Shown: one piece after another, positions 8,561 to 45,232 of the stretch | How the letters are laid out: each line of letters opens with the position of its first letter | Position numbering within the stretch: position 1 is the first letter of the stretch | NCBI RefSeq assembly: GCF_036588685.1 | Contig: NC_086375.1 | Location: 58,714,001-58,778,000, forward strand | Direction: 5' to 3' | DNA from: Mytilus trossulus | Taxonomy: Eukaryota | DNA length: 64,000 nucleotides | The notes under the pieces: model-generated | What the model was told of the DNA's origin: nothing | Database searches by the model: none | The model's input: only the letters and a program-made list of their open reading frames with translations | Program-made: the position numbers and the translations under genes

Positions 8561-8584
8561 ATTGTCACCACAAGGTGCAATGGG

Positions 8585-9215
8585 AAGCTGAATACCCACG
8601 ATCTGCTTGAAACAAAATCCAGGGTGATGTTCAGCTGAGATTTTTTTCAAATTTAGTCCAAAGTTGGGGTCGGACACCCTACCCCACCCTTACGGAAATG
8701 TTAATAAAAAATGATCTACGTAATACTTTTTTCGCCACTAAATGCATTGTGAAGATGAAAAGGTATGGTCTACTAGAGAAAAAATCCAGGGTGTGGTTCG
8801 GCTTAGCTTTTTTTTTTAATTTGGTCCAACGTTGGGGTCGGACACCCTACCCCACCCTTACGGAAATGTTAATAAAAAATGTTCTACGGCAACACTTTTT
8901 TCGCCACCAGTTGCAACGGGAAGCTGAACACCCAAGGTCTACTTGAGAAAAAAATCCAGGGTGTGGTTCGGCTTAGTTTGTTTTTTAAATTTGGTCCAAA
9001 GTTGAGGTTAGACACCCTACCCCACCCTTACGGAAACGTTAATAAAAAATGTTCTACAGCAATAATATTTTCGCGACTAGGTGCAAGGGGGAGCTGAATA
9101 CCCAAGGTCTACTTGAGAAAAAAATCCAAGGTGTGGTTCGGCTTATTTTTTTTTTTAAATTTGGTCCCAAGTTAGGGTCGGACACCCTACCCCACCCTTA
9201 CGGAAATGTAAAAAA
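8585..9215. repeat. 168-170 bp tandem repeat, about 3.7 copies
   Basis: GACACCCTACCCCACCCTTACGGAAA at 8673, 8841, 9011 and 9181. Confidence 0.95.
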
Positions 9216-13069: not shown

Positions 13070-13164
13070 CTCGAATCCAAAAATATTAAAAAAGCCAAAT
13101 AAAATACGAAGTTGAAGAGCATTGAGGACCAAATTTCCTAAATGTTTGCCAAATCCAGCTAAGC

Positions 13165-14150
13165 CCGTATGTACCCGTTCCAGCGCTCGGATAATACCCT
13201 GTTACCTATTCGTTACTTATTCGCTATTAATACATTTGTTATACGTTGCACCTTTTAGAAAAGGAATTTCAATTGTGTCCATGTCTCCGATGGTAACAAT
13301 GTGTTCTTAGAGATGAAATGACCCTATTAACGCGCATGTACCCGTTCGAGCGCTCGGATTATACCCTGTTACTTTTTCGTTCCTTATTCGCTTTTAATGC
13401 GCGGGGTATACGTTTCACCTTAAAATAATATTTTTTTTAATTGTGTTCATGTCTCTAGTGGTAACCATGGCTTCTTAGAGATGAAAATAACCCTATTAGC
13501 GCGTATGTTCCCGTTCCAGCGCTCGGTTAATACCCTGTTACTTATTCGTTCCTTATTCGCTTAAAAAACGTTTGTTGTATGTTGCACTATTTAGCAAAGG
13601 TTTTTCAATTATGTTCATGTCTCTGGTGGTAACAATGTGTTCCTACAGATGAAAATAACCCTATTAGCGCACATGTACCCGTTCTAGCGCTCGGTAAATA
13701 CCCTGTTACTTATTAGTTCCTTATTCGCTTATAATACGTTTGTTGTATGTTGCACCTTTTAGAAAAGGATTTTCAATTATGTTCATGTCTCTGGTGGTAT
13801 CGATGTATTCTTACAGATAAAATTACCCTATAAGCGCGCATGTATCCGTTCGAGCGCGCGGATAATACGCTGTTACTGATTCGTTCCTTATTCGCTTTTA
13901 ATACGCGTGGTATACGTTTCACCTTGAAATAAATCGTTTTTTAATTGTGTTCATGTCTCTGGTGGTAACAATGTGTTCCTAGAGATAAATAAACCTATTA
14001 GCGCTTATGTACCCGTTCCAGCGCTCGGATAATACCCTGTTACTTATTCGTTCTGTATTTGCTTATAATACAATTGTTATGCGTTGCACCTTTTATAAAA
14101 GGATTTTCAATTGGGGTAACAATTTGTTCTTAGAGATGATAGACCCTATA
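13165..14150. repeat. About 168-bp satellite-like tandem array, 6 copies
   Basis: GTACCCGTTCCAGCGCTCGG-like starts at 13171, 13338, 13507, 13675, 13842 and 14009. Confidence 0.95.
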
Positions 14151-15099: not shown

Positions 15100-17340
15100 C
15101 ATCTTCAATATCCCTTCTTGAACCTTTCATAAATGTAGACTCTGTGGGTTTTGAATCACAAGACTTCTTTTCATTAGTTTTCTTGCTTTCATAAAGTGGT
15201 GGAAGTCCTTCTGATTCTGAAATTCTCTCTTCTTTTCAAATTGTTCCGATTTTAGTTTGCAAGTTTCCCCCTTTTTTATTTTCGGGCCAGGTATTTTAAA
15301 CGGCGGAGAGAAATACTTAAAGGTTGTTTCTCTTGGTTTCTTTCTTTGCCACTTCTCTTCCATTTTGTCTATATCATCTTGTTCTATTTTATTACTGGTT
15401 TCTCCCTTTTTCCTTTCTTTTTCTTCTCAATCTTGGCATCATTCATAGTTGTAAGGCATTCTCTAATTCTACCTCTAATGCCAGTGTGTATTTGCCGAAG
15501 AAATACTCCAGCAGGGCGATGAAGCTTCTTCTTTAATTAGTATAGTGTGTTTACAATGTTTAACCAGTTTTCCACATAGCAGTTAGTGTCTCTTCATATC
15601 AATTGACTGGCACTTTCTGTGAGTAACAAAAGTCCACTCCACAAAGGAAATAAGTACAAATAGGATTCTAGTAAGTCCTGTACTTCAGGACAATAATACA
15701 CATTTAGTTTTAAAGTATCTGTGTTTGTGACTTTTGTTTTCATCCTAATGTTTGCAAAATGTTTATGAAAAGGTGATGGTGCCTTTATAGTTCTCTGTGA
15801 TGACACTGTCTCAGGTTCCTCTTCATCCTTCAAGTCTGTCTCTAAATCATTAATTTCGGCAGGAGTAAGCAGATTTCTTATTTTCTGATTAAAATTTTCC
15901 AATGCTGTATTTACATTTTCGCTTTCATATTCACTTTGGCATACCAAACACATTTTCTCATACAGTGTAGAAGCTGTCTCTAATTTGAAGCATTTTGGAA
16001 CAGTCCAAATACATATGTAAAAAAAATCCACTTCCCCTCTATCCGGTGTTTATTTTGAAACTTTGTTCCGGAATCTTTTAAGTATGTGTGCAGAGCAAAT
16101 GTGGGCCGTAGTAAAAGTTCCTTATGACCTTTGTTGGTAGCTACATTCCAAGCTCTATTTAGATATGAAGCAATGTTTTCTTGGTTAAAGATAATTAGAG
16201 AAGAATTAATCAATGGCAAAGAGAAATCAACTTAGACTCGCAGAGGTTGACAGGGATTTCACCTGTTAAACAATCGTATGCACTCTTGCTTCAATTTAGA
16301 CCGGCCCAGCATTTGAGGATTGGTCATTACTCAACATTTCCCAAATTGGATTTGGTGGATCCTTCAGTTGTGCGCCTTTAACACGAGCTGCATAATAAAA
16401 TACTGCCTTCTCCTTGTTATTTGTCCTTTTAACAACTGACCCTGTTGCGTCTAAATACAGTACTCCTTCACCCAATTTCACTTTTTCTCTAAATATTTTC
16501 AATTGGTCTTCTTTGAAGCAAACAGCAACAAATGGCGAATAGGACAGAAGTTTAATGTATCCTGGGATGTTTGGAGATTCATAGTTATCCTTCATTACTT
16601 CTTGTGTTATAAAAAGATCTCTCCAATCATCAGCATCCAATTTTTTGGCTAAATTGCTTTCATATACCAGGTTACGAAGCACTGCCTTCGAGGATGTCTG
16701 GGTTCTATTCCCAGCAGAATATGCTTCTTCACTCATTTCTACAAGTTTTTGATAGTGGAGATTGCTGGAGCCAATGTTGCTAGCTTCTGTCTTGTACTCT
16801 TCTCTTCGATCTCCAGATAGATGTCGTTTACGACGTTCATTTCTTGGATGACTAACATCGCCTGTTATGTCTACATTCACATCTACAGTTAGGTCTGTAT
16901 CTGATGGTTCTTTCTGTATGGTAAATACAAGTGACAAGCATTTGTCTAAGGTGCACTTTGCTTTGCCATAAAAAAAAAAAGCTGCATTGTTTTTTCTTGT
17001 GTCTTTTCTAGCTACACGATTATAGATGAAGCACAATACACAGGATTGGATATATCTCTCAATTCTTTCATAGAAAATATTTGTCCACTGTTTGGCAAGA
17101 TGTCTTCCTACAAGGGATTCAACTGCTTTTTTTCAACCATTCTGCAGAGTTGAGAATGAATGAGAAAGATGCAGGTGGAACAGCAGTATACTCCTTCTCT
17201 AAATCTGACTCAGAACATTTATCCCTATTTCCCTCCTCTGACATAGCAAAAGGTATATCATCTGGATCACTTACTTCTAGGCTTTCTATGTCAGTATCTG
17301 ATTTATTAGTGTCACCTCCTAAACTTCTCGTGGTAGATGA
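15100..17340 (-). pseudogene. Decayed MULE-like (NOF/Foldback-type) transposase
   Basis: LYLDATGSVVK, HICSAHILK (CxxH), YLFPLWSGLL, RDTNCYVENW and EEKWQRKK motifs across frameshifted ORFs at 16296-17036, 15980-16219, 15594-16031 and 15127-15363. Confidence 0.75.
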
Positions 17341-17419
17341 CTCACTTGAGGAATGATAAGGTTTAAATTTAAATTTCTTAGAAAATATTGGAGAATGTGC
17401 ACGTGGTTCTTCATGAAGT

Positions 17420-19020
17420 TCATTTGGACCATAAAGTTACCAAATTGGGAATGTGCCAAAGGGACAACAACCCGACCATAGTGCAGACAACAGCAGAAGG
17501 TCGCCAACAGGTCTTCAATGCAACGAGAAATTCTCGCATCCGGAGGCGTCCTTCATCTGGCCCCTAAACAAATATATACTAGTTCAGTGATATTGATCGC
17601 AATACTAAACTCCAAATTGTACACAAGAAACTAAAGTTAAAATATTACAAGACTAACAAAGGCCAGAGGATCCTGACTTGGGACAGGCGCAAAAATGTGG
17701 CGGGGTAAAACATGTTTGTGAGATCTCAATCCTCCCCTATACCTCTAGCCAACGCATAACAATACGCACATTAAAATTCAGTTCAAGATTAGTCCGAGTC
17801 TGATGTCAGAAGATTTAACCAAGGAAAATAAACAAAATGACAATAATACATAAGTAATATCAGACTACTAGCAGTTAACTGACATGCCAGATACAGACTT
17901 CAATTAAACTGATTGAAAGATTATGTCTTCATCATATGAATATCAGACACAATCCTCCCTGTGAGAGGTTTAATAGCATGCCATCATAACATATATAAGA
18001 AGAACATAACCCGTGTCATGCCAGCAACTGGTTTATTAATAATAAATGTGTTTAGTTCCGATGCCAAGACCCGATAAGTGAATCAATATTAACGCCAAAA
18101 TATGCAATCTTTAATGACCTGACAACAGTATTGTAACTATATTCCTTCTTAATAAGTAAACTTAAAGGTTTTATTAGCTTCTGACGTGAATAATGACATT
18201 TTTGTGCTGTATAAAGAATATTTCTATAAAATATAGGATGTGAAATACCTGAACGTATAAGAAGTCTGCATGTTGATCTATCTTTACGAATGATGTCCTT
18301 ATACCGATGATAAAATTTAGCAAACGTTTTGACAAGTTTGTGATATCGAAAACCCTGGTGTAATAATTTTTCAGTAATACATAAATTTCTCTCTCGTTAA
18401 AATCTAAAACATTGTTACATACACTAGCGAATCCTACAAGTTGGGATATATAAACACCGTAAGATGGTGACAAGGGAACGTCACCATCTTAAAATGGATA
18501 ATTAATGATAGGAAATGAGAAATCATCTCTTTTATCATAAATTTTAGTATTAAGCTTTCCGTTAATATATATATATATCAGAATCGAGGAAAGGGCAGTG
18601 GTCATTGTTAATATTAGCTTTATTTTTAGTAATTTTAACAGGATAAATTTCTTTAGTATTCATACTGAAGTCGTCATTATTAAGAGCCAAAATATCATCC
18701 AAATATCTAAAAGTATTATTAAATGTGTGTATCAGAAGTTGTTTCGATGGGTCTTTGCTGTTTTTTGTCATCATTGTAATTCATAGCAATACAAAAAAAA
18801 ACGGTCCGCAGAAAGTGGTGCACACTTAGTCCCATTGGAATTCCGATAACCTGACGATATACGGAATCTCTAAAGTGAACAAAAATGTTATCTAGTAAAA
18901 ATTCAAGGGCATATATAGTATCAACGCATGTCCAATTGACATATTTTTTTGTTTGTTTATTGCTACTAAAAAATGACATAAAAGAGTTTGAACATATATA
19001 TTCACATTCTGATTTTTTAT
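17420..19020 (-). mobile_element. 5'-truncated Penelope-like retroelement (RT pseudogene plus 3' tail)
   Basis: FLLDNIFV, YRQVIGIPMG, FRYLDDILALNN, PFLD, YDKRDDFSFPIINYP and YGVYISQL motifs; frameshifted. Confidence 0.8.
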
Positions 19021-26941: not shown

Positions 26942-27210
26942 CTGTAAACAAGAAAATGTGAAGAATGAGAATCATAACAAACTGACAACTTACTTAGTCA
27001 TAAATATAAGAAGATATGATATGAGTGTCAATGAGACAACACTCCATCCAAGTCACAATTTGTAAAAGTATACCATTATTTATTTGGTTTTCTTTTGTCT
27101 TTTTCATCATGATATATTTTTCACTTTTTTCAACCGACGAACTTTTGTAAAGGTCGTTTAAATATCAGTCATAACCTCCTTATACATAAAAGAGACTTAT
27201 ACCTTTAGTT

Positions 27211-27459
27211 CTATTTTCCTCCTCCGCCGCCACCTCCTCCTCCTGATTTTCCGCCACCGCCGCCACCACCTCCTCCAGATTTGCCTCCACCACCGCCGCC
27301 TCCGCCACCACTCCCCCCACCACCGCCTCCGCCGCCACCACCTCCGCCGCCTCCTCCTCCGCCTCCGCTTCGTTTAACAATAAGGCGAGCCTCAGACTGT
27401 TCTATGAGGGTTACAATCAGTAAAGATATTACCAATACAGTACAAAGGGAAGGCTTCAT
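27211..27459 (-). CDS. Secreted poly-glycine peptide precursor (gene A): signal peptide, RLIVKR propeptide, S-G18-(S-G9-K)x3
   Basis: Intact 82-aa ORF with hydrophobic signal ending SEA and a dibasic KR site. Gly codons are mixed (GGA/GGC/GGT), as expected for coding sequence. Acceptor TTGCAG lies 5 nt before ATG; TATA and donor upstream; poly(A) signal downstream. Confidence 0.88.
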   Translation of the reverse strand: MKPSLCTVLVISLLIVTLIEQSEARLIVKRSGGGGGGGGGGGGGGGGGGSGGGGGGGGGKSGGGGGGGGGKSGGGGGGGGGK

Positions 27460-27716
27460 GTTTGCTGCAAGTATCCAATAACAATCAATTTAATGAAAAA
27501 AACAGAGTTGTTAGGAATGCTTTAAACGATATTAGATAACTGTCATTTCAAATGGGAATTCCATAAAACTACATGTATGTTAGTTTAATTCTTTAACGTT
27601 AAGTCATAGGAGCGTTTGTGAAAGAAAGAAAAAATGATATGACGAAAGTATAAATGTTATTCTTTAATTTCGATTTAGTTGTCTAACTAAAACTAAAAGC
27701 ATCAATAATATTATTT

Positions 27717-27774
27717 ACTCACTTGTCGAAAGTTTCATTCCAAGTGTAGATTTGTGATTTCATATCTGCTTATA
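27717..27774 (-). promoter_or_regulatory. Gene A TATA box (TATAAG 27774-27769), non-coding exon 1 and GTGAGT donor (27722-27717)
   Basis: Strong consensus donor about 45 nt downstream of a TATA-like box; same layout as the other four genes. Confidence 0.6.
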
Positions 27775-29126
27775 AGGCTTATTTTGTTGTAGCCTATTAC
27801 GTAAACAATATTTGTGGAAGATAATATATAAATCTTCCGAAAATTCCCATCTTTATTATTGTGAGATTTCCTTGTTAACATAACTTGAAAACCATATGTT
27901 TTGTAAAACCAGCTACAGCTCATTAATCAGTAAAAAAAAAGTAAAAAAAAGTTGGGACAATGACACATCTTATATTTTGTAAATTTCGTACACGATCTTG
28001 TTCTGCCAGCGTATTGAAAAATGCATCTGAGATATAATGATTTGTGACTTCTGGCGTATGTATTTAAAATACGTAAAAGATGTTAAAAACAATAATGCAC
28101 ATACATTGATGCATGAATGAATAGCACTATAATAAAGAACAAAAGCAGCAACTTAAAACACAAAGCAAAATCAGCAAGAATTATAAAAAAAAAAAAAAAA
28201 AAAACAAATAAGAGTAAAAGTATAATATGCACCACTACTATGTTTCAAAGCCGTAACATAAACATAAAAACAAATACTAAACACAGACATTGCAATGACA
28301 AGAGTTGACGTTCCTTCTTATGAGTTTAATATTATTATGCTTGCATTGAATAAAAGATGTTTCACCCTGCAAGCATTGCTGCTTAGATTTGATATCTGAA
28401 AGTCCTCATCATCATTAACATTGTGTATCTCAAGAATTTACAAATATCGCAAACGGATACACTATATGCAAACTTTATTAAATTGAGCCAACAAAAAGTG
28501 CTCAAGCTCAGGTTGTTATGTTTTGTATGAATTGTAAGTCATCTCTTTTATAAATCTCACAAAAAATCACAGATTTTTAAAAACTATATTTTACGAATCA
28601 CTGTCAATTCAAATAGGATGTTTTGTATGTCCTTCTACCCTCTTTGGTAAATGATTTTGTACCGGAGTAAACTGATGTTTGTAGATGTAAATACACTGTA
28701 TAAATATATATTGTATTTGAACCAAATTTTTGTATGTTTTGTAGATCATGGCAGACACAGAGAAAACGCCAAGATGGAGATGCCCGATCTTCATGACCAG
28801 ATTATAATAAGAGGAGTTGGACGGGCATGTAATCTATGGTATGTGTAAAAAAGAGGTCATCCAAGGGAGAATACTTATATAAAGACAACACTAGTATGCT
28901 ACCCATAGTAGAATTGACACAAACGAAGGAGACACACGAAATCCTATCTGAGATTGTTTCTGATAAAAAAGAACAAAGTACACTAAAACCATTTTGTAAA
29001 TATGTTTATTTTAAACATGAATGATTTCAAACAGTGTTGTGGTGGGGAAAGGGGACGAATTTTATAATCTATTGATTTGCGTAATGCATATTTTTCAGTC
29101 AAAATGAACGACATATCTACATATAA

Positions 29127-29567: not shown

Positions 29568-30015
29568 TAAATTAAATAGTCTGGTTATTGTATTCATTTT
29601 AGTTGTAGAAAACTCTTTTTACAGGAAAACTATCAATCAAAAATGGAATCAATTAGTGATCTGTGAGCCGTGTACTATGAAACCCGATCGATCATGACAC
29701 AATCAACAGAGGCAGTACCCGAATAGAGCTGGAGAACAAAAAATGTATATAATATTTTCTGAAAAACTTTTAAAATAATGCAAGTTTCCCGAAACAAATA
29801 ATTCTTTAGGTGTACTTTTCATTTAATTTTTTTTTTAAAACCTAAACAGGAAACAAGAAAGACATGTGTTAATTACATATATCATTAAATACTGTAGCAG
29901 GTACCTTTGCGTGTTTACATGAAAAGTGCATTTTTTTACATGAAAGAGGAAATAATTAGTTTGCCTTTTTTTTAAATAAAAAAATAAAAGTTTCCCTAGA
30001 TTTTTTAGTAAACCT

Positions 30016-30085
30016 TATAAATTGCCTGCACGTAACAATTCAACTACATGTACTTAGTTTTCTTAACTGATGAATTAAGGTAAGG
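30016..30085 (+). promoter_or_regulatory. Gene B TATAAA (30016-30021), non-coding exon 1 ending 30079, donor GTAAGG
   Basis: Consensus elements, conserved in the duplicated copy at 32488-32564. Confidence 0.65.
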
Positions 30086-30594
30086 ATGATAATAAATCTG
30101 CACATTGCACAAGTTTTTTTAATTCTGTCTTTGGTGATTTCATTTTATTTGTATCAATAGACTCAAATTCCAAATAATTCGAGAAGTTAACAAATATTAT
30201 TCGGTTCTTGTTAGATTTTAAATTTCAGAAAATACGCGAATGTATAATTATTGCCTTTTTTTATTTTCTTTAAAATAAGCGTACAGATCAATATTGCTAT
30301 AAATGTCATTTTTATCTTTGCATTTGTGTAGAAATATAGAAAATTGTAATCCATAAATTTGCCCATCCCGCACGACTGAATCCCATGAAAAATATTTACA
30401 TTCCCATGACGAAATAAAATTATTTGCTAGGATTCTGACGGAAACGAAAATTTCCGACGGAAAACATGTTCTAATCATCAAAATAAAATCGTTCAAATTA
30501 ATAGAGTGCTAGTACAATGTATCAAAAGCCAAATCATAGTAAAACAAATCAAGTTAAATACATTTCATTTTAATTTTTCTTATAGAGTTTCATT

Positions 30595-30816
30595 ATGAAG
30601 AAACTGATCGTTCTTTTTCTCCTGTTTGCTCTTTTACTGGAAAATACAGAGTCAGTGAGACCTCGTCATCCTCCATGTCATCCTTGGCCTCGTTGTAAAT
30701 CATATCCTAAAGGGAGCAGTGGTGGAGGCGGCGGAGGTGGTGGCGGTGCAGGAGGCGGCGGTGGAGGTGGAGGCGGCGGAGGTGGTGGCGGAGGAGGAGG
30801 AGGTGGAGGACGATAG
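30595..30816 (+). CDS. Secreted peptide precursor (gene B): signal peptide, Pro/Arg/His/Cys head VRPRHPPCHPWPRCKSYPK, then GSS-G9-A-G20-R
   Basis: Intact 73-aa ORF. Signal MKKLIVLFLLFALLLENTES; acceptor TTTTCTTATAG 9 nt before ATG; AATAAA at 30876-30881. Confidence 0.88.
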   Translation: MKKLIVLFLLFALLLENTESVRPRHPPCHPWPRCKSYPKGSSGGGGGGGGGAGGGGGGGGGGGGGGGGGGGGR

Positions 30817-32487
30817 AAATAAAACGTAGCAGTTTCTGATTCACAAACACTGTAGAACAGATCGATGTCATTATGAATAAACACAATTGTGAATAATTAC
30901 ATATCTTTTTCTTTTTAAAATTTCTTCTTGATAACAGCAAACGAAGAAAGGGATGTGATAAATATATATTAATGAAACAGCAACCAACGTCCCCTTATTG
31001 AATGCATGGTTATGCACATACATTGGGGTTTAAATGAAATACAAATCTTCCCTGAAGAATGTCAAACGATGAACTGACGAAAGATACACACAATCATTTC
31101 ATTTAAAGGTGATACAGAAAAAAGCAAAATTAACTTTAAAAGAGGGAAATATATGTATGATAAAAAAAACACAACAAAAAAGAATATAATATTACTATGA
31201 TCGATGAAGCCACACTCACAATGCAAATGCATAACCTGTTAATACGAAATCACATAGACCTACATACCAATTGCTGTACTATGTCTATTTGGGTGTATAC
31301 AGCAAAGTCATAAAATTTACAGGAAGACACAATACTGTACAGAACGCACACCCAAAAATACAACAAAATTCAACTAGCAAGACTAACCATTAACCCGTGA
31401 ATAGATGTCTACCCTTACACCTGACACAACAACTGATCAACAATATTTAAAATTAATCTCGTATAACCTCTACAAGTTCAAGAAAACGACTCGGAGGAAA
31501 GCTCCCGAAGCCGTCTACTCTTCAAATAAGATTTTTACAAACTTCTGAAGGCGACAAATCCATCGTCTTTGAAACACTGCAAAAGGATAGGGACAAAACT
31601 TCCAAAACAAATTACTGTATCTAATGAAAAAAAAACATCAAAAAGCATTGATCGCTCTTTAACATGCATATCCGTACAGAAATGTTCTCCATTAACGAAA
31701 AGATAACTTTAAAATCCTGAGAAGTAACTGCAATCATTCGGATATCGAACTAACAGAGGATTTCACACACTGGAAGAAGGAGAGAATTAAACTTACATTA
31801 AAGAAAGGAGTACTTTCAACAGAATAAAAAAAAATGTTCCGTTCCATCTGTCATGGATGGAAGACTTGTTTTATATTTTGTTGGACTTCACCATTTTGTA
31901 AATATCTTCATTCTAAACATGAAAATGTCAAACTGTGTTGTAGTCGGAGGAAGGGGACTCTTTTGAGACGAATTATATATACCTTTTGATTGGCGTGATA
32001 CATATGTATTAGTCAAAATAAATGAGCTATCTAAATACATTGAATAGTATAATTTATTGAATTCATATTGGCTGTAGAAAACTCTTTTTACAGGAAAACT
32101 TTCAATCAGAAATATAATCAATTAGTTCTCAGTGAGCCGTGCCCTTCCTTGAAAACCCGATCGATGACACAATCAACTGATGCAACACCCGAATAGAGCT
32201 GGAGAACGAAAAATGTCTATAACATTTTCTATGCAAGGTTCTCCTAACAAAACATTCGTTATATTACGTGTACATGTATAAGAACAGATGACATTTTTCA
32301 TTTTTCATTTGTTTTTTTAATAAAACAGGAAACAAGAAAGACATGTGTTAATTACATATAATTATTATTCAAAACTGTAGCAGGTACCTTTGCGTGTTTA
32401 CAACAAAAGTGCATTTTTTAAAATGTAAGAGGTGCTCTTATTTTTAAATAAAAGAATAATAGTTTCCCTAGTTTATTTAGTAAACCT

Positions 32488-32564
32488 TATAAATTGCCTG
32501 TACGTAACAATTCAACTACATGTTACATGTACATAGTTTTCATAACTGGTGAATTAAGGTAAGT
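32488..32564 (+). promoter_or_regulatory. Gene B' TATAAA (32488-32493), non-coding exon 1 ending 32558, donor GTAAGT
   Basis: Homologous to the gene B promoter and exon 1. Confidence 0.62.
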
Positions 32565-33059
32565 TTGATAATAAATCTGTACATGGCACAGGTTTCTTTT
32601 GTCTTTTGTTATTTCATTTTTATTGGTATTTATATACTCAAATTCCAAATGATTCGAGAAGTTTACAAATATAATTTGGTTCTTGTTAGATTTTAAATTT
32701 CAGAAAATACGAAATCAATGTACAATTATTACCGTTTTTTATTTTCTTTGAAAAAAGCGTACAGATCAACACTTAATATCATTTTTATCTTTGTATTTGT
32801 GTAGAACTATAGAAAATTGTAATGGAAATCGCCCATCCTGCACGACTGAATCCCATGAATATTTTTACATTCCCATAAAATTCTTTTCTAGGATTCTGAC
32901 GGAAACGAAAATTTCCTACGGAGACAATGTTCTTATCATCAAAAATAAACTCGTTCAAATTAATATGCTTTTACAATTTACTAACAGCCTAATCATATTT
33001 TTTTTTCATATTTAATACGTTTCATTTTTCAATTATTATTATTTACATATAGTTTCATT

Positions 33060-33188
33060 ATGAAGAAACTGATCGTTCTTTTTCTCCTGTTTGCTGTCTT
33101 ACTGGAAAATACAGAATCAGGTCCTCAACCTCCATGTCACGTTCCTTGTAAATGTGATCCTGTTTTTAAAGGTGGAAATAAAACGTAG
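33060..33188 (+). CDS. Gene B' - 42-aa paralog of gene B lacking poly-Gly: MKKLIVLFLLFAVLLENTES-GPQPPCHVPCKCDPVFKGGNKT
   Basis: Manually translated (below the ORF-track size cutoff). Signal peptide 19/20 identical to gene B; TATA, donor, acceptor and AATAAA retained. Confidence 0.75.
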   Translation: MKKLIVLFLLFAVLLENTESGPQPPCHVPCKCDPVFKGGNKT

Positions 33189-36100
33189 CAGCTTCTGATT
33201 CACTGTAGAACATATCGACTTCATTATGAATAAACACAATTGTGAATAATTACATATACGAAAGCCATTTCTTTGTCTTTTTTTTTTAATTTCTTCTTGA
33301 AAACAGTAAACGAATAAAAGGGATGTGACTAATACGTAAATGACACAGCAATCTAACAGACATTATGAGTCTCCCAATTTGATGCAGGGACACAAACATA
33401 CATCGGGGTTCAAATGAAATCACAATCCTCTCTCTTCAATATCCCATGATCGGTTTCTTGCGTTTGGATTAAATTAAAAACAGATTCATTAATGAGACAG
33501 CAAACAAAAGACATATATAGAGTAACATACAACGGTATACTACTGTTGCCTTTATTTATACAAACTATTGGCTAGACATAAGATATTTCAATCTACAAAT
33601 AGTCCAAAAACTAAAATTTTAAATCAAAGACAGTTAAAGATACACCATCAACACTCAATACAAAAAATCATTACGGTAGGATTTAAAAAAAAAATCATCG
33701 ATCAATGGACTTACTAAACCAGGAAAATCATTCACGTTATATACAATGCAGGAATGTGCGATCTTGTAAAACGCCAAATGCGAAATATACAGAGAAAAAA
33801 AAAATTTGACATTGCGTTGAACTAGAAATTGGCAAATTGATATAATACTCCACAAAATCCAGATAAATTGATTGAATAACAGCAAGAAACATATATGAGA
33901 AAATATCTGAAAAAGTCTAATTTTTGGCAATAAGAAAAAAAAACCAAGAAAAACATTTAGACTCAAACAATTGTTAAATGTGGTTACAATGGCAATTTTA
34001 AAAATGGTAAAAAAAATCTAGATCTTTCCTGTTGCCAAAGTGAATCAATTTTCTAAAAAGTTTCTAATGGGAATAAGGAATAAGTTTCAACTGTTTAAGA
34101 CATCATTTGTGGTTTACTAGTATAATTATCCTGCAATATTTTATCAAATGCCAATTATTGATTTTTATCCTAAAATATAGTCAGATATGTCGGTAACATG
34201 AAGGTATCTAGAGTAGCAGGACAACGGTAACAGGACAGAGTTGGTAACAGTAAGGATTTTTTTCTAAAAAAAACGTTCATTATCACTGAACTAGTATATA
34301 TTTGTTTAGGGGCCAGCTGAAGGACACCTCCAGGTGCGGGAATTTCTCGTTACATTGAAGACCTGTTGGTGACCTTCCGCTGTTGTTTTTTCTAATATGT
34401 ACGGGTTGTTGTCTCTTTGATACATTCCCCATTTCCATTCTCAATTTTAATTTTATTAATTTTATAGTTTAAGAAAAATACATCATTTCAGATTGGTCAC
34501 AATTGTAAGATAACAGCAAACAATGTCATTTATCCTTTGAAACTGTATTTGCAAGATGGAAAATCTGCCTGAGTAATGAAAAATTCTAAAATAAATTCCT
34601 TTCTGTTAATATCTACAGAAAATACTAATAATATGATAATACTAAAATTGCACAATGTTCTCTACTGTTATCAAAAGCAAAATACCTATATTTTTCATGC
34701 AATTATTATTTTGAATTATTTAATATGGTGATGATAACTTAAATTAAATGAAATAGTTGGCATATAGTAGATTAACTTTTTGATTCATCAGTGAAATCGT
34801 CTTGAACATCCTTCCTGTTACTGATTATTGTTATGCTGTTACTTTCAATCAGGTAACATGACAGAACGTAACAAAAGGAATTACGCAGTTCTTTTTCTTC
34901 ATTTACTCGAATTGTGTATAAGTTTACTTCCATCTACATGTCAATTTGATAAGATACTATAAAAACACATGTTCTGGTATAGTGCTGATCATGAAATTAT
35001 TTTCAGAAGGTACACAAAAAGGCTGTAACAGGAGAGAACAACAAAATTATTTTTCTCCAAATTCTGATCTTTGGGGAGTTCAGATTTTTTTAAAACTGGT
35101 TGCTATTCACCAAAACATATGGTGTCATACATTCAGGAAATGAGGCTCTTCACATAGCATTATAAGAAATAATTTTTTTGTCTTTCAAACATGTACACAT
35201 GTGGTAAAAACCAAGCGGTAACAGGAGGGAAATTACCCCCCTGGGGACAACATTTAAAAGACCCTTGAAAATGCTAAATTTTCTTACATGCTTTCGTTAT
35301 AACAAAACCAGACCATAAACGGAGAAGTTTGTTATATAATCTATCAGATTTGTGAAAATCGGAAGGCTGTTTACTTAATTTAGATATTCTTTGAATGATT
35401 GAAATTTCAGAAAATAACAGGGGACAATATGATTTAGGGGGGGGGGGGGTGACCATTTAAATTATAATATTTTATAGGAAGAAATATTAAAAAGAATTTT
35501 TAATTGGTTGCAGTTGGTGCATTATATACTCTAGTAAATAATGTAACTTAAAATTTTCCGAAAAGATTCCTGAATAAAAAAATAATTGCCGGTAAAGTGT
35601 GGGACATGGAAATTAGACTTTTTCAGATATTGTCTCATATCCATTATCAATAAGTGTATGCAACCAATGAGAACGAATTGAAACATACAATTTCTATACT
35701 TTTAAGCGGGAGGTTTGGCTAGTCATTAAACCAGGTTCAACCAATCATTTTTATAAAATTGTCTTGTACCAAGTCAAAAATACTCCAGCTTTTTACCAAA
35801 TAGTTCGTTTCTGTGTATGTTGGCGTTTGTTTTGTAGCACTTAAGTGTGCCTGTTATTCTTCTGTTTTCCTCTTAGAGTTAATGTCTTCTCTGTACTCTT
35901 GTTTTTAGTTTATAACCCAGATTTGTTTACTTACAATCGGTTAATTACTTTTGAACACCGCTATACTACTGTTTCTCTTATTTCGATTAAACAATGATAT
36001 TACTGTAAAAAGCCTAATAGTCCAGCGGATATCAGAATAATTGATCACTTTATGGTAAAAGCATGAAACTTGGCATAGTGAAAGATTTAGGGGTATAGAC

Positions 36101-36869
36101 AAAATTCAGATATGGAGCCACGAACAAAAAATCCAATATGGCCGCCAAATTCAAGATGGCCGACATTAGTATAACATAATTCACTTGATGAAGTCTTCCA
36201 ATTTTAATGTGTTCAGAAGATGTCACAAACTTAAGGAAATACAATTAAGATATGTCAATTATTATTTTTTTTAAACCTTTTAATACAGAAATGATCAAAA
36301 TGGCGTCCAAATTCAAAATGGCGCGTCAAAATGTCTAAGTTTGACAGTATTCGTATATATACACCATGATTGTGTGATAGAAAGTTACCAAATCCGCGAA
36401 ACTGATCATTTGATATCGACAAAGGCCTACAATGTATCATTAATGCCTTGGTGCATAGATAATATTTTCAAAATGGCGGCAATATTTAAAATGGCGCCAT
36501 TTAACATGTACAAATTTGACGTTTGTTTTTAAATATGGTATACAAATGATTAAAAAATAATGGATAATTTATTTCAATACAAGCACGTATATACAAACAT
36601 ATTATTATTTAATGTAACAGGTGACATTAACTATGAAATAAAAATGGCCGATACAGTTCAAAATGGCGTCTTCGACGAGTTCTTATTTTTCACAGTTACA
36701 GGTAATGACCTTAGAAAATTTCACAATTTTCCTGAAATGAAAAAAAAAACAACATATGCAGTATTGAATCAGTGCAAAGAGTATTTCTTAGAAAAAAAAA
36801 TCACAAGTAACTATTTAACATAACAACAGATTAAAATTATAATTAAAATATGATACAAATGCAGGGAAA

Positions 36870-39248
36870 TCAAAAGAAAGCACAGTCACGATCAGTTTCT
36901 CTTTCACAGTCCGGTGAGCAGTTGCATAATGCTGTGCATTTTAATGCTGCTTTCAAGAATTTACATGCTCCTATACATCCTTTCTTACATCTACAGTGGA
37001 TGAACTCTTGGCATGACATTGAAGCTTTGGCAAGCACAGACCAGAATGGTACCGAAGTACCATCAAGTTTTTGCCAACCAAATAAATCTGGTGATGGCAT
37101 ACTTGAATTTGCAACTAAACAATTGCGCCCAAAAAACACTACCTTGGTAAGCTGCACGTTTCGTATGTTCAATGAAGAAGTGCATCTCATGATGGAGGAA
37201 TATTGTCAATTGTTCTTGTCTTCTGCGTCAATAACTGTTTTCTAAACTCATTCACCATATTAGCTGTACTAGACCGATCATACAAAAGCACAACATATCG
37301 TTCTATTACTTTTAACACTTTTAAAATTTCCACTTCATTTGGATTTTCAAAAACCTGCAGAAATGCTTCTGACAACTCCTCATATACGAACCATGTATCC
37401 CAAGCTTTTCCCAGAAAAAGCTGAGACTGTGTCACAACCGGTAAATGAATGGAACAGTGGAAAGACTTTCAATTCCAATGGTCCTAGAGCAAGGCACAAT
37501 CCATGAATTGAAATATATAGAAAGTTCTTTCCAGTGCCAAAACCTATCCACAGCTGTTCAGCCATTTGAATTCCCCTTTTAATGCAGCTGGGAATGAGGA
37601 CATATCAATTGAAAGTTCTCCTTCAACTAATGGGATATCCGGTTCGATGAATATTAGTACAGCTGGTGGAAGATTTAAATTACTCTCTGGTAAAAGAGAC
37701 ACTCTCTTTGACTGACATTTCAACATAGGTTCAGATTGGTCAAATGTTTGAACAACGCCTTGAACATCCTCTGAAATATGTTGGAATAAAGATATACCTG
37801 TACCATGGAATGAATTTTTTAACGAGATACTGCTTGAATTGTGATCAATGTTTTCTACAGCAGATGAAGTAAATACATTTTGTAGTGGATTGGTAGGGCA
37901 AACAATACCTTCTTTGACAGAACGACGACAAGCATCCTTGGCCATGGAAGTAGAAATTTCTAACACTCGGTCGTAGGAGACAGACAGTCCAAGATTGAAG
38001 AAAGTATCTACTAGATCACGTTTGCTAGTCTTACATGGATCATGATTCCCAAATTAGCACAAAATGGAGGTTCATGATCTTTCATGTGACGGTTGGATAG
38101 TTTCTTTGTACAACTATACATCAGAAGATGTGCTATTGTTAATGTCGACTGAGAATATGAACGATCCTGAATGTTGGGTCCAAATTGAATCATACTGACC
38201 AAAGTAAGCAATGACTGGGGTACATAAGCTTCCTGATATCCCTTTGGGAAGGTTCCTTTAAATTCTGAATTTGATGCGAAAATATCTTTACGAACAAACG
38301 TAGCTGCTTTTGATATGTTGAAAAACTCATTATCAAAGTCTTCTAAGCAGACTCTCTCAATGCAGGACCAATGTCATCTTTGAAAGCAAGGATGTTTTCA
38401 AGACCTTGTTTGTAAGCATCTAAGTTAGGGAAATTACAATTCTGTGTTTTAGTCGTGTACTACTAACTCGAGATGAAACATCTGCACCTAGACATGTTAT
38501 TCTTTCCGTATAAAGTTTACATAGATCTGACAATCTGAAAATGCAATACCATGGATTTGACTTTCCTTCTTAGATTCGACATTACCATTTTTCATTTCAA
38601 TTTGAGATGCACGATTATATAAGGAAACAAAACATTTAGGGTGTTACTTTGCTTCCTTTGCAATTAGATCACCAGCACTTAACTTTGCAAGTAACAACGT
38701 GTCATTTAATTTTACTGCTCATTCTCTCACATGTGTATCCTGTCCAAACGTTGAGGACTCATGAAGGGCTTCTTGGCCATTTTCATTACAGAAAAAGCAC
38801 ACAGACGGGTAACTGGTGGACTGAACGGAGAGGCTATGTCTAGTTTTCTTTTAGATGTGGTTGCTTTGTCATTTATTCTCTCATGTAAGGTTGTTTTTTC
38901 TGCTCTATCCAACTTTGTCCTGTTCAGTTTCAAGTTGCAATATTTGTGCCAACATGCCTTTTGGTCAATGAAATACTGTGCTATTCCGGGTCCCTCATCT
39001 AAATATAAGTTTGCAATGCACACATTAATGCCTTCAGGCATCAATCGTAATTCATGAAACTTCTAAATATTGTCAGCTAAAGATTGATAACCAGCACCAA
39101 CATTGAGACGTTTAGAATCAAATGGGCATATACGTTTTTCATCTATTATTTCTTGGCATAGGATGCAATTTGCCCAATCAATATTATTTAACTTAGTTGG
39201 TTTGTCATATTCTACACTTGATACCCTGAACGTCTTTTCAGTAGCCAT
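36870..39248 (-). pseudogene. Academ transposase relic (N-terminal Cys region, XPG-like FHSFTGCDTVSAF motif, C-terminal Cys8 finger)
   Basis: ORF fragments IDWANCILCQE, ACWHKYC, NIDHNSSS...SFHGTGISLFQH, LWIGFGTGK, FHSFTGCDTVSAF, CRCKKGCIGACK..KAALKCTALCNC. Confidence 0.85.
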
Positions 39249-39494
39249 GTTGTAAGAAATATGATCGTAAATTAGTTTATATATTCCTTGTATATAACTT
39301 CTGTATGCCAGACGCGTGTTTCGTCTACAAATGTCGTATCAGTGACGCTTGAATCGAAAAAGTTAAAAAGACAAACAAAAAGTATTTAATTTAATATTTG
39401 ACGACCTGAAATCCTGAAAGTTTTGCAAAGCACAAATATTTGTTGATTATTAAAAGCTTTCTAGATATACACGATATAGTTTCTGATAATAAGA

Positions 39495-40000
39495 CTTTTG
39501 ACGGCCATTTTGAATTTGTCGGCCATTTAGCAATTATTTTTGATTGTTCCATATTCAGAAAAGATTAATTAGCATCATAACTAGCAATATGCAAAGTTTT
39601 TTGCTTTTATTTTCAAATGATCAATTATACCATTTTTATTTTGGACTCTGCCTCATGACTGTTGGCGGCCATTTTGAATTTGTCGGCCATTATGGAATTA
39701 TTTTGATTGTTCCATATTCATTAAAGATTATTAAGCACCATAACTAGCAATATGCAAAGTGTTGTGTTTTTATTTTCAATGATAAATTATACCATATTTT
39801 TGGACTCTGCCTCATGACTGTTGGTGGCCATTTTGAAATTGGCGGCCATTTTTGATTTTTTTTTATTGTTCCATATTCAGAAAAGATTAATAATCATCAT
39901 AATTAGCAATATGCAAAGTTTTTTGCTTTTACTTTCAAATGTTAAATTAAACTATATTTTTTGACTCTGCTTCATGACTGTTGGCGGCCATTGTGGATTT
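39495..40000. repeat. About 161-bp subterminal tandem repeats of the Academ element
   Basis: GGCCATTTTG units at about 39502, 39664, 39823 and 39983. Confidence 0.85.
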
Positions 40001-40646
40001 TGTTTCGATGGCTCCATATCCAAAAATGTTTATAAGCATCATAACTAAAACTGTGCAAAGTTTCATGCTTTTACCATAAAGTGATCAATTGTCCCAATAT
40101 ATTGGACTTAGCTGCTGGACTATAATGCAAACAATGATATTCAGCAAACTCCTGCCGGTGGAATTATATTTTGACGTTAATATTTGTTCACGAAAGCAAA
40201 TACTTTCCATGCAATCTGAAACGTCCAGCTGTTAATTAAGAAGATGTGATATAACTGCCAATGAAACAACCCTCTAACCGACGAAAATGACACAGAAATT
40301 AAAAACTTCTAGGTCACCGTGCGTCCTTCGACAATAATCAAAACCCATAATGCCTAGTTAAATATTAAAGGCCTCGAAATGACAAATGTAAAACAATCAA
40401 AACGAGAAAAATAACGGTCTGATTTTTTTACAACCCAATGAACGAAAAAATGAATATATATCAACCAAAACATCCACTGAATTACATGCTCCTGACTTGG
40501 GACAGGCATATACAGATTTTAGCGGGATTTGGGATTGAACAAGTTTGCGGGAGCCCAACCTTCTTCTATCCTGAGACAAAGGAGTAACAGCACAACATAT
40601 GATCGTAGTTAATGACAGCTAGTTCAAAGTAAAAAAACAACTTATA

Positions 40647-41194
40647 ACTAGAATTGCCATTGCAAGCAATAGCGGATGTCACCCTGGTCCACCAATTTTC
40701 ACTAAACAGCAGCCATGGTAACGGCAGCCATTTTGGAAATTTCAAAGTTGAATGCCGCATCAAGAATTACAAGTTAACATTCCTATAACGTTTCATACAT
40801 TTTTGAAGAATTTTCAAAATTTTGCTATTTTTGAACAGTTTCCATGGCAACATTTGAAAATTCCAAAGTCATACTGCTGCTTCATATTGTGCTCCCGATA
40901 ATATTATACCATCATATAACATTTAAGGGCTGTAGAATTAATTTAACACTAATGTTCTGGAATGTTCCATTGAATTTTTCATATTTTTGCTGTTTCCATG
41001 GCAATGGCAGCCATGTTTTTAATTCCAAAGTCAGGTGCACAACTAGACATGGTGATCAACATTATGTTATAGTTCCATCAACATTGGTCCATTCAGTTCC
41101 GAGAACTAAGCTGGACAAAAAGTGTGGAATAAGAATAATAAAAAAGAATCGTACAATAACAATATGTCACCCGACCTCCGTCAGGGTGACATAA
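40647..41194. mobile_element. Helentron-associated non-autonomous element (HINE-like)
   Basis: ACTAG start; subterminal ATGTCACCC; terminal hairpin ATGTCACCC-n11-GGGTGACAT; internal CCATGG(C/T)AA repeats; AAT/AAG microsatellite. Confidence 0.65.
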
Positions 41195-41299
41195 AAAATC
41201 CAGTGAATATCCAACATCCAATGGCGAAAAGGCACGACCTTGTGCAATGCCAAAATGCAGGTACCGACAGATTGTAGAACCATGTAAGAGAGACAAAAT

Positions 41300-41645
41300 A
41301 TACCAGAGACACAGCAAACTCTCTATCAAATAAATCATGATAGAAATAACAAGTCCTGAAATATCGTATTAACTGGGATTTATATAATACATTTTGTACT
41401 CCGTATGCAGGCGTTTCTGGAATATTGCTACTTGGAAATGCAGTTTCAGAGATTTTTCTTTTGAATGATAGTGATTTTAGAATGTATGATTTATTCCTGA
41501 GGCTCCCTAAGACAAGATACTTGTTTCTACGTTGGCCATTATTTTTTAGTAAACAAAACAGGACCAACTCTTTCAACTTGTCTTCAATTAAAATGGGGAA
41601 TGCTTGTGTAAACTGTATCAAAGTCAAATGTTTTAATGCTATCGC
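41300..41645 (-). mobile_element. Penelope-like RT fragments
   Basis: LKELVLFC..KNNGQRR.KYLVLG and SSNIPETPAYGV..SQLIRYFR.C motifs. Confidence 0.7.
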
Positions 41646-44600
41646 AATATGAAAAAGTATAATATTGTATGTACTCTAAAAGCTATTTGGAATGTTTTAA
41701 TAACCACATTTGATTCATGTCACCTATAAAATACTGAATGTGTAATGCATTCGTATATAAAAATAATATTTAGTTTGTTTTTTAATTTACCTTAAACAAA
41801 ATCAATATTCATATCATATTACCCCGGTCGTATCTAAAATACCGGACTCTGATTAACAAAATCTCCGTATAAAAATAAGAGTGCATTTTGTGCTAAAATT
41901 CCAATCATATCTTTGTTTCTATAAAATCGTGTTATGGCATTTTTTGTATGTGTAGTATAGCTTGAATTGATTATTTATTTTTATAAATAGTATTTGTATA
42001 TATTTGTTCATGCATTGACTTAATGATTGACTCTGAAAGAATATACAGTATGACAGTACATTGATTTTCTATTAACTTAATAAGTATTTACATCCTGGGT
42101 TTACCATTTCTTTATTCCGATTGGTTACTCTGTGAGCTCCTTTGATTTTGAGGCACTCTTTTCAGGTTCTTCACGGAGATATAAAACACTGATACTTTAT
42201 TTTGATATTCATATTCATATATTTATAATTCTTATCCTGGAAACCATTCTTTATATATACGGATTCCAGTATGTGAAGTATAGAGTTCAGTAACTTTATA
42301 GAGGAGCACTGCCCATCCCTTGTTTTATATACACGAATGTTTATTTGTGATTACCTATAATAAACCTTTAGAACCCTACTGATCAGAGATGATTACGCCC
42401 AACTTGATGAGTATATACGTTGACAAATCAAAACAATCTGTGTTGATCTGTATATGGTTTCATATCATTCAAAATTCATAATCAATTATTATAAAGCGTT
42501 GATTTCGGGGCCTTTTATAGCTGACTATGCATATGGGCTTTGTTCATTGTTGAAGACCGTACGCTAATCCATAGCTGTTAATTTCTGTGCCATTTGGTCT
42601 CTTGTGGAGAGTTGTCTCATTGGAAATTATACCACATCTTCTTTTTTATATATATTTGAACGACAATGATACTATGATTAGTTTTGCCCCAATACTTTCG
42701 GCCCTGCAATCATTTGCTGTCTAGTAAGAAATGGTGGCTTTTATATTTTTTTAAAGTCCAAACATAGTTCTGTAGGATAACAGAACTTGCAGCGTTTCAA
42801 CTCCATCCTCCACCCTCAAACTGCTTGAATTAAAAAATAAAATTATCTTACTTTGAACTTTTGATGTCGTTCCTTAAACAATGAGTAGGGTTTTATTTAT
42901 CGAATCAGTCAACCAAATTGTTTTCATTTGTTTCACTTCCAATGATTACATTTTTTTTATCTAATATCTGGACGCGCCTAGTTCATGCGTAAACCATGAT
43001 CTCTAGCTAATGTTCCAGTGGAAGTTCACATGAATATGAATTTAATGAGGTTGAATTATTCACTTGTAAGTGAATAATTGATCTTACAAGTGAATAATTC
43101 ATCAACGATGTTCATATATATGCTTATTTTGACAAACCTGATCCAAATTGACCGCTAAAAGCGAATTATTTTATCACTATTTCCTTTTCATTAATGATCA
43201 AACAAAACAAATCATGATTTGTTTTCTTATGCTCGTGGCTAATGCCCATACATCTGTTTACACCTGTGAAACACTTAAAATGTTTACCTTACAATTCCTT
43301 CAATGGAGATAATTTGTAAGCATATTTCCGAAAGCAATGAATTTATTAAAAATGTAATGATGAAAAACGAACAAGTAAATGGAAATGAAAACCTTATTTT
43401 GCAAAACCCCCCAAATCATTCGAAACGAACATATTATGATTATTTCAAACATCTTCGTATCTTGTGACTCAAAATTATTCAATCGATTTAAAAAAAGAAG
43501 CTAAAATCTAGAACCCACGAACATTTTACGCTTGTTCAAATCAATTAAATTCAACCCACGAATAACAGTTCTCTCTTGTATTTAAACTTGTGTCATATGC
43601 ATTCAACATAATCGATAGACTTTGAATTATTCAGTGAAATGATTGCATGTATCTGTTGAATGCGTGGTCTAAAAAAAAACTCAAATTTTCTTAAGGGAAA
43701 AAGTTTGTATCTTGACTATTTTTGTTAAATCAAAGCTGTTCTTTGATCTCTCTTTAAAACATGATATTTGTTCCTGTGTCGTTATTCTTTTTTAAGAAAT
43801 AAAGTAGGACTTTCTTATATTTTTGAGCCGTTAGGAAAAAAGGGGGAATTTTTATTTAAAGGGTTTAGGAGGTCAATCTTTTATACTGTTGCACTCTACG
43901 AGGTATTCTTATTTCAAGTACACTAGCAGGTCCTTTAAATGTATAACTTAAGTATCCACATCGTTTATGGAGTATCTAGTAAATACCCAGCAGAACGAAG
44001 AAATACCCAGTTCCATAAATGATTGGAAATTCGAAAGGAACACAAAACAGACAAGAGATTATACAGGGTTTCCTTTTTTGTAAGTGTTGTAGAAGAATAT
44101 ATTTGGTTTCGAAGTGAAGTTTCATTTCTATTTCAAGTAATTAGTAATTGATATATTAACTTGATTTACAAACAAACACTTTTATTTTCTATATACTTTA
44201 TTTAGCCTTTTCAATGCAGAAATATTATACTTCTTGATCGAATATTGATTACGCTTTCCAAGAATTCCTCAACTTGATAAAATTCAATTTGTTGTATTTC
44301 AAGAGCATCCATATCATGTGATCCTTTCCATGATGCACATAAAATCCGTTTTGTTCACTATCTACATTTAACGAATACTTAGTAATTCGATACAAACAAG
44401 GTTTAAAAAAAACCTAAGGTTTCAACTCCCTCAGACCTAGTTGACTATAAATGGATATGGCTATTATTTCAAGTTATTTTTAGTCATACAGGTTTTTCAA
44501 CTGTTTTGTTCTTATTCATCTTTTCTAATACATCCTTAGCTATTATATTTTTGGCTTTGCTCGTCCTTGTAAGCGCGTCGGACGCATTTCGATATTGTAT

Positions 44601-44789
44601 GTTCTTTAACGTTCGATTCATTTCGTATGAGTATACGCATCTTTAAACACTTGGCTTCTTGCATCATCGAAAAGTAATTAATTGCCGAAACACGGATCTG
44701 CTTCAGTAATATTGGGACCGTTATTACTACCCCACTGTATTGGTTCCTGTCGGTGGACTTATTTTAACTATAACAATCCCCCATCCCCC

Positions 44790-45232
44790 ACCCCCATTAT
44801 TTTTCTCTAGAAGTCCTGGAATAGGCCGACCCTACCCCCATTTTTTTTAACATTTTTTTCGAATTTTGAGCTCTAGTTTCAGATTTTTGAACATAGCGCC
44901 CTTCGATACCTAGCGCAAAAGTAGCGCCTGTTTCTCCTCTACAAGACCTATATAGTCATATCCCGTGACACCCCCATTATTTTTCTCTAGAAATCCTGGA
45001 ATAGGCCGACCCTACCCCCATTTTTTTTACATTTTTTTCGAATTTTGAGCTCTAGTTTCAGATTTTTGAACATAGCGCCCTTCGATACCTAGCGCAAAAG
45101 AAGCGTATGTTTCTCCTCTACAAGACCTATATAGTCATATCCCGTGACACCCCATTATTTTTCTCTAGAAGCCCTGGAATAGGCAGACCCCCCTAATTTT
45201 TTGACATTTTTTTTCAAATTTTGAGCTCTAGA
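44790..45232. repeat. About 179-bp tandem repeat, 2.5 near-identical copies
   Basis: CCCCATTATTTTTCTCTAGAA..CCTGGAATAGGC at about 44791, 44971 and 45149. Confidence 0.95.

Follow-up and report, generated by a model that had tools for sequence, protein, structure and literature searches.

The open reading frame (ORF) at 27211 to 27459 on the minus strand of the window, that is, of the whole 64,000-nt stretch of Mytilus trossulus DNA that was analyzed, is best explained as an intact, lineage-restricted, and probably functional gene (gene A) for a small secreted polyglycine peptide, bounded by predicted gene signals. Its setting is best explained as a local cluster of fast-changing genes for glycine-rich secreted peptides. 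Among the possible functions, a role as an extracellular matrix component ranks first and is tentatively favored; the main rival, a glycine-rich antimicrobial peptide (AMP), ranks second and is appreciably more doubtful.

Gene A and its predicted precursor

Gene A encodes 82 amino acids (aa) followed by a TAG stop. The part downstream of the dibasic KR is 52 aa long, of which 45 (87%) are Gly, and its residues run S-G18-(S-G9-K)3, ending in G-K-stop. An initial sequence-only reading of the locus had described this composition, this layout, Gly runs in multiples of 9, and the G-K-stop end, and the translation agreed with it exactly. The mature part consists of Gly, Ser, and Lys only, without Cys, Arg, aromatic, aliphatic, or hydrophobic residues; with three Lys and no acidic residue, its computed net charge is about +3 and its pI about 10. 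Gly codons are mixed (17 GGA, 15 GGC, 11 GGT, and 2 GGG), the longest run of a single codon being 3 (mean of shuffles, 3.7). Since the codons are mixed, with positions 1 and 2 held in all 45 and position 3 scrambled, the tract is read as one maintained at the protein level and not as a trinucleotide microsatellite.

Promoter, intron, and polyadenylation motifs accompany the ORF (Table 1), and from the signal-like N terminus we infer secretion, in keeping with the secreted precursor proposed earlier. The hydrophobic core of the predicted signal peptide has a Kyte-Doolittle mean of 3.18 over 10 residues. The octamer CCTTATAA occurs six times in the window (both strands), and three of these copies precede the donors of genes A, B, and C. 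More generally, TATAAR lies at a matching distance from 7 of the 57 GTRAGK donors in the window. The donor at 27722 is the sole GTRAGK in the 2.5 kb upstream of gene A; the pyrimidine tract of the acceptor is weak and fell short of a 9-of-14 filter. An abundant dispersed repeat (27000 to 27079) has its boundary exactly at the candidate polyadenylation signal. Sequencing depth over gene A in run X20, where unrelated loose ends were present, was not counted as expression, and a lack of X3 coverage upstream of gene C was left out of account.

A KR followed by Ser, with an Arg upstream, is a good context for proprotein convertases. At the gene A site, Ser comes directly after KR, P6 is Arg, and P4 is Ile, a good-looking context for the convertase site that the sequence-only reading had pointed out. 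A convertase would thus remove RLIVKR from the secreted precursor, and the product would perhaps be trimmed to a 50-residue Gly-amide. The terminal G-K had also been taken for an amidation signal, and this part of the proposal stands with a qualification: the terminus is a possible CPE/PAM signal, but each S-G9-K unit ends in G-K, so that the terminus alone, being also the plain end of a repeat unit, is weak evidence for amidation. Gene B independently ends in G-R-stop, which would lend modest support to the amidation reading. Loss of the terminal Lys of A would leave Gly exposed for amidation, as has been proposed for myticalins (PMC5577615, available text). The computed monoisotopic masses are 4081.92 for the product uncut at KR, 3316.39 after the KR cut, 3188.29 once the Lys is also removed, and 3130.29 for the amidated 50-mer.

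Table 1. Positions of gene A parts and of the neighboring genes in the window
Feature	Positions	Strand	Remarks
TATA box of gene A, predicted	27770..27777	-	CCTTATAA; 52 nt upstream of donor
Short noncoding exon 1, predicted	27723..27745	-	5′ end inferred from TATA spacing
5′-UTR intron, predicted	27465..27722	-	258 nt; GTGAGT donor; CAG acceptor 5 nt before ATG
Signal peptide, predicted	27388..27459	-	Residues 1-24; predicted cleavage after S-E-A by the -3/-1 rule
Propeptide RLIVKR	27370..27387	-	Six residues, dibasic end (KR = residues 29-30); from translation; putative convertase site
S-G18	27313..27369	-	Residues 31-49; from translation
Unit 1, S-G9-K	27280..27312	-	Ser codon AGT; 24/33 nt shared with unit 2 and with unit 3
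Unit 2, S-G9-K	27247..27279	-	Ser codon TCT; from translation
Unit 3, S-G9-K	27214..27246	-	Ser codon TCA; 29/33 nt shared with unit 2; G-K a possible amidation signal
Stop codon TAG	27211..27213	-	From translation
Polyadenylation signal AATAAA, candidate	27079..27084	-	127 nt past the gene A stop
Gene B, 73 aa	30595..30816	+	Signal, Pro/His/Cys segment, G9-A-G20, G-R-stop; TATA 30013, donor 30080
Gene C, 42 aa	33060..33188	+	Recent copy of B, Gly tract absent; TATA 32485, donor 32559
Gene D, 95 aa	49342..49629	-	Signal, Ser-rich segment, two-Cys hairpin, Gly runs 8/5/11/3/2, Trp-containing end
Gene E, 77 aa	60462..60695	-	Signal, G-X-P repeats, Gly/Arg-rich tail

Neighboring genes, alleles, and database relatives

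Four further small secreted-peptide ORFs (genes B to E) were found in the window, each starting a few bases past an AG acceptor. The signal peptides of A and B, B and D, and D and E align above shuffles (P = 0.001 to 0.0075), in a test that leaves the layout general to signal peptides uncontrolled. On the DNA level, the shuffle test for relatedness of A and B was not significant (P = 0.41). Common ancestry of the five genes is, on these comparisons, suggested rather than shown. Multiples of 3 account for two of the seven Gly runs of B and D, and the G9 of gene B precedes a G20.

Genes B and C are the products of a recent tandem duplication and lie about 2.47 kb from each other (29965 to 30900 and 32437 to 33260), with upstream blocks 87 to 93% identical; gene C lacks the stop codon and the whole Gly tract of gene B, and its end corresponds to 3′-UTR sequence in B. 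The two-Cys segment of gene D is conserved and predicted to form a beta-hairpin (strands 40 to 45 and 48 to 53; pLDDT about 53 to 66), and the Gly runs of D finish in Gly-Trp motifs. Gene E has collagen-like triplets of the form G-X-P as well as Cys residues, and its tail is of Gly and Arg.

Among the 20 sequencing runs listed for the locus, none was an RNA run; four of the 20 were aligned to gene A and used for the reading of alleles. X3 record 27, which carries an organism label other than that of the best-matching run, covered residues 1 to 76 with six substitutions in 266 nt and no gaps, and the G18, G9, and G9 runs are therefore kept in a related allele. X2 record 10 covered the whole coding sequence (27182 to 27939) with eight substitutions and 21 gap letters, which excludes a change by a 27- or 33-nt unit, though smaller changes would fit. 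With divergence of about 2% and mixed codons that should resist slippage, the gap-free allele would give weak support to a constraint on Gly-run length. The sequence-only reading had held that free variation of Gly runs among alleles would speak against it; no such variation was seen for gene A in the one cleanly readable allele, but tracts of neighboring genes vary or have been lost. Two homologues of gene D were recovered, P0034 (94% identical over the query) and P0035 (70%), with runs of 9/11/3/2 and 4/11/3/4/3, respectively, compared with 8/5/11/3/2 in D itself, so that the G11 run is constant in all three sequences while the other runs differ.

An exact protein look-up returned none of the five proteins. 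The whole-protein homologue search gave 33 matches at E ≤ 10 from 8,000 scored candidates, the 10 inspected being unrelated Gly-rich sequences, and region searches with A (residues 1 to 40) and B (1 to 42) gave no candidates among near-length proteins. There was no usable match for A or D in the ESM Atlas, and in JGI metagenomes 0 of 620 pattern matches were confirmed and exact DNA matches numbered zero; blank searches of this kind do not establish an absence of relatives. Pfam returned no family at E ≤ 1 for A, B, C, or E, and gene D had a subthreshold match to GRP (PF07172; 19.5 bits, where the cut-off is 30). Peptide A and the cluster are apparently undescribed: neither appeared in the literature search, which mostly excluded subscription journals and some mussel proteomics supplements, and the distinctive motifs were absent from the supplements of three mussel papers (9 of 16 files for PMC3896809).

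Matrix and defense roles considered for peptide A

Peptide A would, in the reading that we tentatively prefer, be a disordered, self-associating peptide of an extracellular matrix. The monomer would most likely be disordered, with local PPII propensity, and the secreted, concentrated peptide would self-associate through intermolecular polyglycine-type hydrogen bonding to serve as filler or framework in organic material outside the cell, for example, mucus, the periostracum, or a cuticle of byssus type. Lys residues at intervals would hold the peptide soluble in granules and supply amines for cross-linking. A matrix role is favored because A has hardly any side chains with which to bind a specific partner or enter a membrane, because polyglycine aggregates, and because bivalves have Gly-rich framework proteins, as in shell and periostracum frameworks that include Gly-rich secreted proteins (PMC3191542, PMC3896809, available text). 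Labile tracts nearby provide further support, since the Gly runs of D differ among homologues and C corresponds to B minus its Gly tract. Several observations count against this role, namely, the lack of Tyr in A, the dedicated processing signals and the 5′-UTR intron before the ATG that recall mussel AMP genes, the length of unit 1, the gap-free G18/G9/G9 allele, and the constant G11 of gene D. Shematrins and KRMPs, as described in the same two papers, resemble A in being small, secreted, low-complexity, and Gly-rich with basic residues; however, they have Gly-Tyr repeats, which are used in quinone tanning, or a Lys/Trp domain, whereas A has neither Tyr nor Trp.

It is also possible, if rather doubtful, that A is a defense peptide, antimicrobial or mucosal, that is glycine-rich, cationic, processed, and amidated and acts in the manner of the arthropod Gly-rich AMPs, and that the cluster is a hypervariable defense locus. 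The signal peptide, dibasic site, and terminal G-basic-stop of both A and B point this way, as do the net charge and the similarity of signal peptides beyond shuffles while mature parts differ. That test is nevertheless blind to the universal signal peptide layout, the DNA-level comparison of A and B gave no significant similarity, and the terminal G-K of A is equally the end of a repeat. Spiders, scorpions, and isopods have amidated cationic Gly-rich AMPs (PMC6784228 for chelicerates; PMC7017220), and a secreted, cationic, Gly-dominated product with an amidation signal can likewise be predicted from the A sequence. Acanthoscurrins, ctenidins, serrulin, and armadillidins are likewise small, secreted, cationic, Gly-dominated, and repetitive, with C-terminal amidation (predicted in A). 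In the available descriptions, however, these arthropod AMPs have short Gly runs regularly interrupted by aromatic, aliphatic, or Arg residues, whereas mature A is built of G, S, and K alone, with Gly runs of 9 to 18, no hydrophobic, aromatic, or Arg residue, and a low charge density. Compared with those AMP sequences, A lacks motifs of the GGGX type that include an aromatic, aliphatic, or Arg residue, and most of the armadillidins listed in PMC7017220 are about 47 to 51% Gly with GGGX motifs (X = F, Y, R, S, or I), against 87% in A. No sequence relationship between A and the arthropod Gly-rich AMPs was found.

Closer to hand, the Mytilus myticalins share with A a secreted precursor of biased composition, a dibasic site, predicted Gly-amidation, and a 5′-UTR intron directly before the ATG (PMC5577615, PMC12294457), which in A is predicted between a donor at 27722 and an acceptor at 27465. 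As described in the available text of PMC5577615, myticalins have the KR after the mature peptide, followed by an anionic extension, more than 10% Arg, and three exons; in A, by contrast, the KR lies ahead of the tract, and there is neither an extension nor Arg. Judged by its sequence, A misses a defining feature of every family tested (polyglycine-II [PGII] bundles, Gly-rich AMPs, myticalins, and shematrins/KRMPs) and has no Pfam match, and we therefore place it in none of them.

Small secreted Gly-rich peptides are a known kind among invertebrates, in which A, at 87% Gly and with no detectable relative, is extreme. The gill and digestive gland of mussels contain abundant Gly-rich transcripts that have not been named (PMC5549309, PMC4203926, available text). 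According to the available text of a 2025 paper, Gly-rich AMPs have not been identified in bivalves (PMC12294457), a gap that A would fill if it proved antimicrobial. If A self-assembles, it would offer a natural test of pure-polyglycine PGII bundles free of disulfides and hydrophobic packing. A peptide of 50 to 52 residues is open to synthesis, and both questions are thus directly testable.

Regularity of the repeat and the polyglycine-II bundle

Units 2 and 3, the most similar pair at the nucleotide level (Table 1), have a common AAA-TCN junction and agree in six of nine wobble bases (uncorrected P = 0.025 in 1 of 10 comparisons). Unit 1 agrees with either of them in only two or three of nine wobble bases, and its AGT Ser codon is one change away from a Gly codon and belongs to another codon family than theirs. 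Nucleotide identity thus appears to support one duplication (units 2 and 3) and not a second (unit 1). When three breaks were placed at random in 45 Gly (200,000 trials), a common divisor of at least 5 arose in 0.6% and runs that were all multiples of 9 in 0.045%; the former rose to 1.5% of trials when one duplication (the last two units) was assumed, and the long run was a multiple of the unit in 6 to 9% when all three units were taken to be duplicated, all under post hoc nulls of our own making with arbitrary length ranges. The run-length pattern of gene A is non-random, and its significance hinges on the duplication history.

DNA duplication can account for much of the numerical regularity. 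A 33-nt K-S-G9 unit duplicated within a mixed-codon GGN tract would produce the repeat, at least partly, and the number 9 would then be the length of a unit and say nothing about how many turns a helix makes. That unit 1 equals units 2 and 3 in length despite its diverged wobble bases is not accounted for by duplication alone: either unit 1 is an older copy that has retained its length, in which case the sequence-only reading would be favored, or the agreement is a coincidence, and a length constraint could be reflected here. No codon-lag periodicity in the tract survived multiple testing (best lag 17, P = 0.044, 22 lags). A 7-codon third-position motif common to A and B, spotted by eye, was dropped as plausible by chance.

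Selection of the K-S-G9 register for ordered interchain PGII bundles or fibers, formed by a processed, amidated peptide nearly free of side chains and encoded in what may also be a defense-peptide cluster, appears unlikely; A would in that case be a natural free-standing polyglycine-II material. Rather improbable as well is a dispensable or decaying gene, intact through recency, with a tract that has no selected function. Paralogue C has lost its Gly tract, and a homologue of A was not found in the protein collections searched, as such a gene would predict; however, the first two positions are held in 45 Gly codons with the third scrambled, the signals of gene A are all intact, and the aligned part of the allele from the differently labeled organism is gap-free.

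The sequence-only reading had equated G9 with three PGII turns and preferred a stand-alone PGII bundle to a disordered tract, and neither proposal held up well. Among the validated helices of sfAFP, gp38, and ALK, 8 of 30 have lengths in multiples of 3, which is the chance level, two have length 9, and the longest has 11 residues (PMC13243192, Table 1). There are features of A that would suit a bundle. Periods of 7 to 15 residues from start to start occur in gp38 and ALK, linkers in the three reference proteins are of at most 2 residues in 7 of 27 cases (PMC13243192), and central helices of gp38 are built of runs of six to seven Gly (PMC8409303). PGII bundles (ALK/LTK, gp38, sfAFP) share with A helix-compatible Gly segments, 2-residue breaks, and probably local PPII propensity (PMC13243192, PMC8409303, PMC11364801). 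The three equal S-G9-K units, with their period of 11, fit segments of 4 to 11 residues joined by short linkers, whereas all 30 reference helices are shorter than G18, which shows no marked linker. Because Ser-to-Ser spacing in A is 19, 11, and 11, G18 does not represent two units under a model with K-S turns. The 11-residue period and the K-S linker may therefore be called compatible with a bundle, and the multiple of three is, on this comparison, no bundle signature.

The number of helices and the means of holding them together also differ. The reference bundles, taken as a set, hold 6, 10, and 14 helices of 4 to 11 residues each (PMC13243192), whereas A has four Gly runs, one of them of 18, or five helices if G18 folds back; oligomers could add more. 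Disulfides and hydrophobic contacts are needed for the stability of sfAFP (PMC8409303, PMC11364801), and the reduced snow-flea antifreeze protein is an expanded, unfolded chain (PMC11010952). Reduced sfAFP variants with 3 × 7, 14, or 21 consecutive Gly stay expanded, the 21-Gly variant being aggregation-prone (PMC11010952), and a scrambled control indicates that glycine richness alone does not confer a stable bundle (PMC13243192). The sequence of mature peptide A contains no stabilizing disulfides, hydrophobic face, or flanking folded domain. A PDB search returned 56 matches at E ≤ 10, none of them named ALK, LTK, gp38, or antifreeze protein; most were chimeras or fusion constructs, the two alignments displayed were to Gly-Ser linkers, and microcin B17 matched at an E value of 0.32. 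Single-sequence AlphaFold2 of the mature peptide was uninformative (pLDDT 48.3, pTM 0.12, no secondary structure).

A folded stand-alone monomer is thus unlikely, and chain-to-chain packing in an aggregate is plausible. Taken as a whole, a stand-alone PGII bundle, either monomeric or a small oligomer, in which selection keeps the 11-residue unit and K-S forms the turns, seems quite improbable, even considering the gap-free X3 record, the exclusion of a whole-unit change by the X2 record, and the matching length of unit 1. That the plus strand is coding (a polyproline ORF at 27281 to 27481), or that the tract is a noncoding microsatellite, is barely credible: the plus strand does have an open CCN frame at the locus, but this frame starts only at TTG and has none of the gene signals, whereas the signal peptide, TATA box, splice sites, and polyadenylation signal are all predicted on the minus strand, in frame with Gly, and the mixing of Gly codons speaks against a microsatellite.

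The window as a whole is about 32% GC and repeat-rich, and no long conserved ORFs were recognized in it. One abundant dispersed repeat resembles a repeat of Mytilus. A 39-aa ORF on the minus strand (39947 to 40066) has a signal-like start similar to that of gene A (LCTVLV in both); it lies partly inside a 159-bp tandem array, has no evident acceptor, and is probably due to chance. Short satellite arrays were found at four places: 8568 to 9216 (period, 170 bp), 13162 to 14113 (168 bp), 39493 to 40000 (159 bp), and 44789 to 45231 (179 bp). Broken ORF fragments are present at 15100 to 17450, 36850 to 39350, 41180 to 41680, and 51470 to 52230, and resemble decayed remnants of transposons and reverse transcriptase.
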